A stretch of 64,000 nucleotides of DNA, from NCBI RefSeq assembly GCF_003334305.1, contig NZ_QOWS01000011.1. One strand, given 5' to 3'. Each line of letters opens with the position of its first letter. The first letter of the stretch is position 1. The DNA is from Escherichia coli. GTDB taxonomy: Bacteria; Pseudomonadota; Gammaproteobacteria; Enterobacterales; Enterobacteriaceae. This document shows, in pieces, positions 34,758 through 53,306 of this stretch. The position numbers were made by a program, and so were the translations under genes. Under the pieces are notes generated by a model. That model did not search any database. It had not been told where the DNA came from and saw only the letters and a list, made by a program, of their open reading frames with translations.

Positions 34758-34774
34758 TTGGCTCCTCTGACTGG
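34758..34774. repeat. 17-bp att core at the tRNA-Asn 3' end (single copy)
   Basis: ttggctcctctgactgg overlaps the tRNA 3' end; no second copy found by eye between 3300 and 4320. Confidence 0.6.
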
Positions 34775-34834
34775 ACTCGAACCAGTGACATACGGATTAA
34801 CAGTCCGCCGTTCTACCGACTGAACTACAGAGGA
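34759..34834 (-). tRNA. asnT: tRNA-Asn (GUU)
   Basis: 76-nt minus-strand sequence reads TCCTCTGTAGTTCAGTCGGTAGAACGGCGGACTGTTAATCCGTATGTCACTGGTTCGAGTCCAGTCAGAGGAGCCA; the copy next to mtfA is asnT in K-12. Confidence 0.9.
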
Positions 34835-35825: not shown

Positions 35826-35915
35826 GGAGAGATGCCGGAGCGGCTGAACGGACCGGTCTCGAAAACCGGAGTAGGGGCAACTCTACCGGGGGTTCAAATC
35901 CCCCTCTCTCCGCCA
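35826..35915 (+). tRNA. serU: tRNA-Ser
   Basis: 90-nt sequence GGAGAGATGCCGGAGCGGCTGAACGGACCGGTCTCGAAAACCGGAGTAGGGGCAACTCTACCGGGGGTTCAAATCCCCCTCTCTCCGCCA with long variable arm. Confidence 0.9.
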
Positions 35916-36461
35916 CTTTATCAATGACTTATCTCCCGACTTCCCGCCTTGCTTTTCCTAAACAGAACAATCGTAGAATATTCTTGAAGGGTTAGATCGT
36001 CACTGTTTTCTGTTCGATACTGTGACATTCAGCACTTGATTCGCTATGGGTCTGACAGGAAGGTTTCGAGCGAAAATCTACAGTTATTCAGTCGTTTTCT
36101 TATCGGTCACCATTATTCTTTTAGACATTGATCCTATGAAACTGCCGCAAAGTTGCTGGCGGGAACTGAAGTTGCGTAGAGAAGGGGTCAATAATTGAGC
36201 CAAAAAAGGAACGCGGCCGTCAGATTAAAGCCGCGGGACAAAGTCCATAATTTCCAAGAGTTGTTGAATTTCCCAGCTTTTTTGAAAGCCTTTGTATCAT
36301 ACTAACAAGTAAAAAAGGTTTAAATACCAAAATTAACCTATATTTCTGGTTAGCTTTACCATGACAGATGACTTGCTCCTGGAGACATTGGCGCAGCCCG
36401 TCTGTATTGGTGAGTTGTGTATTTATTGTTCGCCGTTTTCTCAGTTTTTTTCTACAGACAT

Positions 36462-36496
36462 AATAAAAAAGACACGTCTCAAGCATGAGCGTGTCT
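36462..36496 (-). terminator. zinT terminator hairpin
   Basis: agacacgtctca/tgagcgtgtct stem (one bulge) preceded by aataaaaaa, giving a U-run after the stem on the minus strand; ~90 nt downstream of the zinT stop. Confidence 0.5.
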
Positions 36497-36584
36497 GAGT
36501 TTGTCTTATTTATTTGTCTTGGTAAATTATTGTCGTTACTACCAGGCACTGTTCTGTTAAATAATTGAAGTCAGCGCAAAAAAA

Positions 36585-42775: not shown

Positions 42776-43284
42776 AGTGTATTCCTTATTGTTGCTTAGT
42801 TAGGGTAGTCACTATATTTGCGACTGAGCTGGTCGCTATTTTTAACCAGGCTGGAAAATTGAGTCAATATATCGAAAGCGGTAGTCGGCGGGTGTAAGTA
42901 TGTAATGATGATGCTGCACTGGTGTTGAATATTATTCACGCCAAATTTTCCTTATTGAGTAACGTCGTCGCAAGTGGCCTCAATGATTTTAGACCATTAT
43001 CAGAGGTACGGGGTGGCGGGGAGAGATTTAGTGCTGTGGAATATTGTGGTGCTGATGAATATTTATATCGCGGATTGGTAGAGAAAAAGCTTATTTCATG
43101 CACTATTTTTGCAAATATTTCTATATGGGAAGCGTGTTTGTTACGGATTAATTCATAAAGAAATGCATTTGGGTGTTAGCTTGAAGAGTAGCTGGTTGAT
43201 GTTATTGTGCCAGGAGGGGCAGGGTAAGGTGCTGTATCGATATGCTTCGGCAATTGCGTGTGCCGCAGATGGAGATGAAATGCC

Positions 43285-43324
43285 AATAAAAAAGCCTGAG
43301 TTCGATGAGGGACGAACTCAGGCT
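43285..43324 (-). terminator. yedS rho-independent terminator
   Basis: 12-bp perfect stem agcctgagttcg/cgaactcaggct with 8-nt loop, followed on the minus strand by UUUUUUAUU; ~45 nt after the yedS stop. Confidence 0.7.
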
Positions 43325-43366
43325 AGTGTTAAGTTTTACAGTAACACGCCGCAGCGAGTTGGCTGA

Positions 43367-44482
43367 TTAGAACTGGTAGACGATACCAACTGCAAACTGG
43401 TCATCAGCTGCTGCGCCAGTAATGGCGGCGTCATCTTTATCCAGCATGTTGAATTTGTATGCAGTATAAACGTTCATGTTCTTATTAAAGTAGTACCAGG
43501 TACCAACTTCAATGTAGTTCACACGGTCAGCGTCAACATATCTATGTCCAGGTACCCCTTTGATATCTTTACCTTTAGAGTACACATAACCTAAGGACGG
43601 ACGCAGACCAAAGTCGAATTGATACTGAACAACCGCTTCAAAGTTCTGGGTTTCATTGATAAGTTGATCACGCATTATTGTATTGCCTTCTCGATCGGCA
43701 ACACCTGTATCAATAGAACCCGGAGTCATATTACGAGTTTCGCCGTACATTACAGCTGCGTAGACATTGTTCGCGTCATACTTTGCAGCCAATGACCACA
43801 GTTCAGCATTTGAACCGTTTCCATCGGCAACTTGATCGTTGGTGCGATCAGATTTGCTATATGCACCAACGATACCAAAACCATTGATGTTATAGTCTAC
43901 AGACAACGCATAGCCGTCACCATTTTGTTTCTTAGTGCTACGGTTGCTGTTTTTGCCTTGGTACTGAATCGCAAAATCAAGACCATCAACCAGGCCAAAG
44001 AAATCATAGTTACGGTAGGTTGCAACACCGTTGGTACGACCATTCATGAAGTTGTCAGCGGAAGCCCAGGAATCGCCACCCCATTCAACTAACATATCGG
44101 TATAAGCTGCGGCATCATAAGCAACACCGTAGTTACGGCCATAGTCAAATGATCCTAACTCGTTATATTTCAAACCGGCGAAGGTTAAACGGGTTTTTTC
44201 CTGGTTTTCACCTTCGGGCTTGCTGGCGTCGAGGTTGTATTCAAACTGACCAAAACCAGTCAGTTCGCTGGTGATTTGGGTTTCACCTTTAACACCGAAA
44301 CGAGCATAGGAGGTATCTTCGTTTTCGCTGTTATTATCATCAGTATTTGACCAGATGCGTTCGCCAACCATCTTGCCGTAGAAATCAACTTTATTGCCAT
44401 CTTTATTATAAATTTCAGCCGCATTTGCTGCGCCAGCAACTAATAACGCCGGGACCAGCATTGCCAGAACTTTTCTTTTCAT
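43367..44482 (-). CDS. yedS: OmpC/OmpF-family outer-membrane porin (intact)
   Basis: 371 aa from [21 protein letters not shown]; porin-like beta-strand periodicity and C-terminal ...AVGIVYQF. Confidence 0.85.
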
Positions 44483-44793
44483 TATGTATTCCCTTGTGAT
44501 TATAATCTTCATGAATATATCAATAAGTGCCGTTATCCAAAAAAAAGCACATTTGGATACTATTCTATGAAGTTCATTTTATTTTAAGGATTACATGTAA
44601 CAAATGTATTTAAAAGATTTCAAAGTGTTTCTAATATATTTAATATAATTCAGGATTATGAATTCTGAATATAAACATTCATGAAGATTATAAATGTATA
44701 TCAATAAGTTATGAGTTGAACTGAAAGATAGGGAGTATCAATGATCGTTGCGCTAAACGGCTGGTGTGATCACGCGCACATTAATGAAGGCAT

Positions 44794-44884
44794 AAAAAAA
44801 AGCCGGCATCATGCCGGCCCAAAAAATATAAACAAGACGATAAAAGGCTAATAACGGAGGCATCATGACACAGAATAATAAAAA
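44794..44884 (-). ncRNA. rseX: Small RNA in the yedS-yedR spacer, probably RseX; ends approximate
   Basis: Minus-strand hairpin GCCGGC-AUGAU-GCCGGC followed by U8 with no CDS upstream; TACAAT-like -10 box (44896-44891) about 90 nt upstream; contains an anti-Shine-Dalgarno stretch (CAUGAUGCCUCC). RseX maps to this spacer in K-12 (from memory). Confidence 0.5.
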
Positions 44885-45030: not shown

Positions 45031-45414
45031 TTGACTGGCTCATTCAATGTGGAAAAATGTGATTTTTATCACATAATAGTACTAAGTCTGAATTTTCCGG
45101 GTTATCTCAAAATGGAATACGGTTCGACAAAGATGGAAGAGAGACTCTCTCGCAGCCCTGGTGGCAAACTGGCTTTGTGGGCTTTCTATACATGGTGTGG
45201 CTATTTCGTCTGGGCAATGGCGCGTTACATCTGGGTGATGAGCCGGATCCCCGATGCCCCCGTGTCGGGATTTGAAAGCGATTTAGGCTCTACCGCGGGA
45301 AAGTGGTTAGGGGCACTGGTCGGATTTTTATTTATGGCTCTGGTCGGGGCATTGTTAGGCAGCATTGCCTGGTACACCCGACCTCGTCCCGCACGTAGCA
45401 GACGCTATGAATAA
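45031..45414 (+). CDS. yedR: Small inner-membrane protein
   Basis: 127-aa ORF with two hydrophobic segments; alternative starts at GTG 45049 or ATG 45112. Confidence 0.75.
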   Translation: MTGSFNVEKCDFYHIIVLSLNFPGYLKMEYGSTKMEERLSRSPGGKLALWAFYTWCGYFVWAMARYIWVMSRIPDAPVSGFESDLGSTAGKWLGALVGFLFMALVGALLGSIAWYTRPRPARSRRYE

Positions 45415-53219: not shown

Positions 53220-53306
53220 AACACATCAGATTTCCTGGTGTAACGAATTTTTTAAGTGCTTCTTGCTTAAGCAAGTTTCATCCCGACCCCCTCAGGGTCG
53301 GGATTT
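53220..53306 (+). ncRNA. dsrA: DsrA small regulatory RNA
   Basis: AACACATCAGATTTCCTGGTGTAACGAATTTTTTAAGTGCTTCTTGCTTAAGCAAGTTTCATCCCGACCCCCTCAGGGTCGGGATTT matches DsrA as I remember it; three stem-loops with a terminal hairpin plus T-run on the plus strand and no plus-strand CDS upstream. Confidence 0.85.

Follow-up and report, generated by a model that had tools for sequence, protein, structure and literature searches.

Escherichia coli K-12 carries a broken porin gene, yedS, between hchA and rseX, and an unbroken porin gene at the same place in another E. coli raises the question of whether it is the K-12 gene without its lesions, and hence a peculiarity of one strain, or a different gene. 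The gene lies in a 64,000-nucleotide stretch of contig NZ_QOWS01000011.1 (hereafter, the window). A sequence-only reading of this stretch had described yedS as fragmented in K-12 and had proposed that the strain may express an additional OmpC-like porin from an intact yedS, possibly under the control of an adjacent RseX-like RNA.

The minus strand at 43367-44482 holds a single porin open reading frame (ORF) of 371 codons plus a stop codon (1116 nt), and neither the ORF list nor the translation contained an internal stop or frameshift, as that reading had stated without naming the strand. The longest form of the ORF starts at 44512 and encodes 381 aa; RefSeq places the start at the ATG at 44482 and names the 371-aa product (WP_000824355.1) “porin”. 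The region 43200-44800 is 100% identical to that of E. coli A7, from orangutan faeces (NZ_CP028767.1). Alignment to OmpF, OmpC and PhoE showed that the N-terminus, consisting of the signal peptide and the start of the mature protein, agrees with those of other porins and that the C-terminal end reads VGIVYQF with Phe as the last residue, the usual signal for outer-membrane assembly. The signal peptide, which is the same in every aligned yedS allele of either type described below, would be a Sec signal peptide cut after ANA. The strong terminator described earlier was also present: it begins 43 nt beyond the stop codon, and the predicted fold of the 91-nt terminator region had an energy of -33.4 kcal/mol, with a z-score of -6.45 relative to dinucleotide shuffles. 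Feature coordinates are given in Table 1.

Table 1. Features of the yedS locus in the window, with the evidence on which each assignment rests.
Feature	Position	Strand	Evidence
Intrinsic terminator of yedS	43293..43324	minus	12-bp stem with 7 G-C pairs, then a T-run
yedS-locus porin CDS, 371 aa	43367..44482	minus	ORF and translation; 100% match to the A7 annotation; PF00267; OmpK35 (PDB 9hn1)
Divergent cassette, coding part of the mature protein	43385..44410 (boundaries approximate)	minus	Sliding identity, 7-strain alignment
Allele-specific insertion, 13-20 residues	43661..43720	minus	Alignment to OmpF mature residues ~240-250
Loop-3 constriction motif LVEWGGD (OmpK35 type)	44072..44092	minus	Protein alignment
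Signal-peptide coding part, 21 residues	44420..44482	minus	Alignment; 96-100% nt identity across alleles
Shine-Dalgarno AAGGGA, 7 nt upstream of the ATG	44490..44495	minus	Read from the sequence
Candidate sigma-70 promoter TTGTTA-16-TAAAAT	44576..44603	minus	Consensus match only
Phased OmpR-box-like repeats GAAACACTTTGAAATCTTTTAAATACATTTGTTACATGTAATCC	44588..44631	minus	Likeness to known ompF/ompC box sequences
CRP-like palindrome TGTGATCACGCGCACA between rseX and yedS	44765..44780		Sequence match
RseX sRNA gene with its own terminator (44820-44800)	44795..44884	minus	Rfam RF01401, full length

The gene order hchA - porin - rseX - drpB - yedJ - dcm - vsr is the same in A7 and in a K-12 MG1655 derivative, and the porin gene sits between hchA and rseX/drpB, which is the yedS position; the assignment of the gene to this locus was therefore correct. 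RefSeq flags K-12 yedS as “frameshifted; internal stop”. Aligning the K-12 gene to an intact 397-aa allele of its own type, from strain 2017.06.05CC, placed two lesions in it: C484T, which turns codon 162 from CAG into TAG, and the loss of one nucleotide at nt 663. These two lesions fit the three fragments (b1964-b1966) into which we take K-12 yedS to be divided. The K-12 gene is thus broken, as had been stated, and the frame in the window is free of frameshifts.

Several other features of the window and of the neighbouring genes were recorded alongside. The 590-nt spacer between hchA and yedS (42776-43366) has a strong positive GC skew of up to 0.45; no gene is annotated there in A7, and a “hypothetical protein” is annotated in the spacer of one strain (L007 432-644). 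The cell-division gene drpB is annotated as a pseudogene or as split in several strains (L005 2471-2739, L006 2609-2872 and L007 2590-2879): APEC E19019 has an internal stop in it, strain 136 has a frameshift, and 2017.06.05CC has the gene in two pieces. The cytochrome b gene yodB, which is present in K-12, is missing between tRNA-Ser (35826-35912) and zinT (window 35916-36584), where ~220 nt replace ~1 kb of K-12 sequence. The window also contains tRNA genes at 34762-34834 (minus strand) and 35826-35912 (plus strand) and a full-length DsrA sRNA gene at 53220-53306 (plus strand; Rfam, 102.5 bits).

Shared position did not translate into shared sequence. The window CDS is 68% identical to the K-12 yedS CDS at the nucleotide level, and its protein is 61-62% identical to intact K-12-type alleles, 60% identical to OmpF and 58% identical to OmpN. 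The protein is therefore no nearer to K-12 YedS than to OmpF, and the two YedS types fall into separate clades of a neighbor-joining (NJ) tree, so orthology by sequence was not found. The window gene and K-12 yedS have in common their place between hchA and rseX-drpB, together with a 5′ UTR, Shine-Dalgarno sequence, signal peptide and 3′ flank that are 96-100% identical. By contrast, the window protein differs from the K-12 type in loop 3 (LVEWGGD instead of LPEFGGD), in a short OmpF-like L4 region and in length (371 aa instead of 397 aa). The expectation that the porin would be K-12 yedS minus its lesions thus failed; judged by these comparisons, the window allele is not a repaired K-12 gene but rather a positional allele of another lineage.

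To which porins, then, is it closest? The 100%-identical protein is assigned to PF00267 (Porin_1), and the NCBIfam models for OmpF, OmpC and PhoE aligned to it end to end (E 1e-124 to 1e-135). The scores fell below the curated cut-offs, at 449.9 bits against 583 for OmpF (NF007446), 417.4 against 484 for OmpC (NF007841) and 414 against 599 for PhoE, so the protein belongs to neither the OmpF nor the OmpC subfamily as these are defined, although OmpF was the best of the three models; nor is its location, between hchA and rseX, that of ompF between asnS and aspC. In the alignment, the window protein lacks the insertion in L4 that characterizes OmpC and OmpN. The best match among solved structures was OmpK35 (9hn1, E = 8.7e-145, full length), and the window porin is therefore OmpF-like rather than OmpC-like. 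The label OmpC-like, given by the sequence-only reading, fits instead the lineage to which K-12 YedS belongs (lineage II, below).

In Klebsiella, the major OmpF-type porin is OmpK35, encoded at the ompF locus. The window protein is ~66% identical to it and shares with it (9hn1, 5o77) the LVEWGGD motif, where OmpF, OmpC and K-12 YedS have LPEFGGD, as well as a (T/A)AYKFN strand and the constriction residues. It differs from OmpK35 in being encoded at the yedS locus, in its L1 and in being 13 residues longer at the position of OmpF L6. With OmpF, OmpC, PhoE and OmpN of K-12 the protein shares PF00267, the style of the signal peptide, the C-terminal YQF and the pore-lining residues; it differs from them in locus and has 57-60% identity to them. 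All eight constriction residues in OmpF numbering (K16, R42, R82, R132, D113, E117, G119 and G120) were kept in the alignment, and the protein would therefore form a trimer with water-filled channels through which small hydrophilic solutes can diffuse. The level of identity to OmpK35 and the full-length alignment to the structures of OmpK35, PhoE and OmpF point to a trimer of 16-stranded beta-barrels. The allele-specific insertion aligns with a part of OmpF that we take to be surface loop L6, and the remaining indels between alleles likewise lie in loop regions, a pattern that would arise if diversifying pressure acted on a surface antigen or receptor. We are confident that the window gene is an intact and very common yedS-locus allele, whose product is probably a general-diffusion porin of the classical type represented by the OmpF/OmpC/PhoE family.

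The differences between alleles are concentrated in one block, which has sharp edges at the signal peptide and at the 3′ end. Against K-12, 60-nt windows of the divergent cassette were 27-76% identical, with a single conserved window reaching ~88%, while in the sliding comparison the strains were 96-100% identical in hchA and the 3′ flank as well as in the 5′ UTR and the codons of the signal peptide. Because identity collapses between conserved flanks in this way, the yedS locus acts as a cassette exchanged by recombination. The 357-aa allele of strain A12 matched the window allele at 95-100% over the 5′ half and at 11-79% over the 3′ half; therefore, alleles are also internally mosaic.

The NJ tree split the yedS-locus porins into two lineages. 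Lineage I comprises the 371-aa (window), 357-aa and 352-aa alleles of E. coli together with porins of other genera, and OmpK35 forms the next branch. Identity to the window protein was 85% for the member from E. fergusonii, 77% for those from Citrobacter and Enterobacter hormaechei, 74% for that from Leclercia and 73% for that from K. oxytoca. The relatives in E. fergusonii, Citrobacter and K. oxytoca adjoin drpB and/or yedJ-dcm-vsr, and lineage I is therefore the porin at the yedS position across genera. Lineage II, with lengths of 387-404 aa, groups with OmpN and OmpC; its members are the K-12 type, of 397 aa, and an allele of 387 aa. When an intact lineage II allele was used as the protein query, the best 120 matches came only from Escherichia and Shigella. 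Among 60 genomes taken at even spacing from the 4884 with a detectable yedS match, the window allele accounted for ~18%, the 357-aa allele for ~15% and the 352-aa allele for ~23%, giving ~57% for lineage I and ~43% for lineage II. K-12 yedS is often linked to OmpS1 of Salmonella, a link that goes back to source annotations (“outer membrane protein S1”, “yedS (ompS1)”).

We also considered whether the two lineages are the survivors of an ancestral tandem pair, and rejected this idea: E. fergusonii has two porin genes from drpB to hchA, but the second porin is NmpC-like and not of lineage II, with a different signal peptide and 51-62% identity to all porins tested. This extra porin (369 aa, L018 6663-7772) and a TrkH-family gene lie between the yedS ortholog and hchA of E. 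fergusonii, and both are absent from the window. Within lineage II, the 387-aa allele (WP_000824375.1) carries R42E, R82K and E117V at the OmpF constriction positions. It is intact and widespread, occurring in E. coli CUVET24-CCU25 (L008 768-1931) and, as the same protein, in two further loci (L026 and L027); the three substitutions suggest an altered pore or a non-channel role.

An intact gene at this position proved to be common. The identical 371-aa protein was present on at least 1000 public contigs, and the 90% cluster of the window protein contained 1321 member sequences. A search with the window CDS gave a match in 4884 of the 5426 complete E. coli genomes; identity was at least 99% in 463 genomes and 95-99% in 564, so that the window allele, at 95% identity or more, occurred in ~1027 of the 5426 (~19%), with UTI89 at 99.3% and LY180 at 99.9%. 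By comparison, 60-nt probes centred on each of the two K-12 lesions matched exactly in 357 and 371 genomes (~7%), mostly laboratory derivatives; the examples listed were mainly K-12 derivatives such as ER1709, MG1655, MC4100 and Origami. Lineage frequencies were estimated from the 60-genome sample and BLAST identity bands, and intactness was inspected at 16 non-K-12 loci, of which 14 were annotated as intact. One of the other two, from a cattle strain grouped by similarity with O157:H7, carried an independent frameshift, and the other, from the clinical strain XDL, was truncated by IS903B. Because the broken copy is largely a feature of K-12 laboratory strains, intact yedS is the normal state in natural isolates. 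The strain studied here is thus not exceptional in having an intact gene; intact yedS is ordinary and already known, being annotated in thousands of genomes.

The sequence upstream of yedS bears on whether the gene is used. The spacer between rseX and yedS contains 28% G+C, compared with 53% for the whole window. Its sigma-70 promoter is a weak candidate, because promoter-like sites in the region were not enriched over shuffles. OmpR-box-like repeats (TGAAATCTTT, TAAATACATT and TGTTACATGT; 44588-44631) overlap the candidate -35 element, and the repeat block is conserved upstream of the orthologs, at 88% over 83 nt in Citrobacter and at 72% in K. oxytoca; from their likeness to the known ompF and ompC boxes, we infer that the phased repeats may be OmpR boxes. 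The K-12 equivalent of TGTGATCACGCGCACA is listed as an in vitro CRP footprint assigned to yedS (PMC12871828, a 2026 preprint). A second CRP-like palindrome, TGTGATTTTTATCACA, lies just upstream of drpB at 45058-45073.

According to published work, H-NS/StpA silences rseX “and surrounding areas”, and expression of native rseX can be detected only when hns has been removed (PMC8313858). Given this nearby repression and the low G+C content of the promoter region, expression of the porin in laboratory culture is probably low. Could the gene then be an intact but dead relic, silenced for good, expressed at no time and on its way to the pseudogene state of K-12 and O157? The AT-rich upstream region, the silence of native rseX and the independent inactivations in K-12 (nonsense mutation and frameshift), the O157-like strain (frameshift) and XDL (IS903B) are what such a relic would leave behind. 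A relic accords poorly, however, with the intact ORFs, 352-404 aa long, that thousands of genomes and several genera keep at this position, with pore-lining residues that are all kept and with a proximal promoter block conserved in Citrobacter. Functional YedS was, moreover, reportedly found by Warner et al. in 2013 in some clinical isolates, where it is said to affect carbapenem susceptibility. Proteomics of an O26:H11 strain also detected a porin with “50% homology” to K-12 YedS (PMC9731836), and a passage on carbapenem resistance in PMC11267920 cites Warner 2013 for YedS. We therefore regard a dead relic as very unlikely and keep to the reading of a probably functional general-diffusion porin. 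Since the ORF is intact and lies at the yedS locus, the strain could make an additional general porin, as had been proposed, albeit one of the OmpF-like type; such a porin would contribute to permeability upon de-repression or after loss of OmpF and OmpC.

The RNA encoded next to yedS, earlier called RseX-like, proved to be a true RseX, scoring 99 bits with RF01401 against a gathering score of 50 and covering model positions 1-94. Its gene has the same orientation as yedS, and its 3′ end lies 312 nt upstream of the yedS start codon. This placement would suit control of yedS by RseX, as would the fact that porin mRNAs are known RseX targets, ompA and ompC both being repressed (PMC8313858). The duplex searches, which used 30-nt windows and mononucleotide shuffles and are crude in that they ignore accessibility and Hfq, gave a best RseX-yedS duplex of -15.4 kcal/mol at positions -56 to -33, at a distance from the ribosome-binding site. 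Of the shuffled versions of RseX, 17-30% did as well. The same searches recovered the known controls, RseX-ompC at -19.5 kcal/mol (-25 to +5; shuffle fraction, 0.07) and MicF-ompF at -22.2 kcal/mol (-17 to +8). MicF-dependent regulation of YedS was reportedly also described by Warner et al. in 2013; in the windowed search, the best MicF-yedS pairing reached -9.8 kcal/mol, which was worse than shuffles. Full-length RseX or MicF, when paired with 165-nt leaders, formed long unrealistic duplexes that were not distinguishable from shuffles. At the locus in other species, RseX scored 68.8 bits in E. fergusonii whereas neither blastn nor the Rfam model at its gathering threshold found it in Citrobacter or K. 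oxytoca, both of which keep the porin. The proposed control of yedS by RseX thus gained no support from these comparisons, and RseX probably does not act on yedS.

That this strain is unusual in keeping an intact, OmpC-like K-12 yedS controlled by RseX through base pairing is hardly tenable: an intact frame set against the K-12 pseudogene and an rseX gene close by on the same strand speak for it, but intactness is the common state, the protein is only 61% identical to K-12-type YedS with OmpF and OmpK35 scoring best, and the predicted duplex was no better than shuffles in searches whose positive controls worked.

The arrangement of the locus resembles known porin-sRNA pairs. Chen et al. in 2004 reportedly described ompC-micF and ompN-micC as pairs of a quiescent porin and a neighbouring sRNA, and ompS1 of Salmonella is silenced by H-NS and depends on OmpR and LeuO. 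As in ompC-micF and ompN-micC, the porin gene at yedS adjoins an Hfq-dependent sRNA that represses the mRNAs of other outer-membrane proteins; unlike the genes of those pairs, which diverge, rseX and yedS are tandem genes on one strand. An AT-rich control region with OmpR-box-like repeats is common to yedS, the quiescent porin-sRNA pairs and ompS1. By analogy with micF/ompC and micC/ompN, RseX would repress other outer-membrane proteins (ompC and ompA). We tentatively suggest, as a possibility that we do not favour strongly, that yedS is a maintained cassette polymorphism of two lineages, one OmpK35-like and the other OmpN/OmpS1-like, which may form with RseX an H-NS-silenced “porin swap” module. 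In the searchable literature mentioning yedS, we found no description of the two-lineage dimorphism. The polymorphism is modest in scope, and its pattern is familiar from other surface-protein genes.

An intact yedS matters little by itself, because it is usual in natural E. coli, RefSeq already contains its protein, and a functional YedS with an effect on carbapenem susceptibility was reportedly described in 2013. What usefully needs correcting is the identity of the gene in the window, which is an OmpK35/OmpF-like porin of lineage I and not the lineage II gene of K-12 repaired; “yedS” is the name of a position and not of one gene, a distinction that surfaces in PGAP annotations as “porin” for lineage I and “porin OmpC” for lineage II. 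If the porin swap is real, it would replace the major porins with a strain-specific one, and susceptibility to phages, colicins and antibiotics would differ between strains. Porin studies usually score just ompF and ompC, and a view centred on K-12 hides the fact that most strains have one more intact general porin, their fourth or fifth, which belongs to either of two very different types. This bears on antibiotic resistance through porin loss, on the range of phage and colicin receptors and on outer-membrane vaccine antigens.
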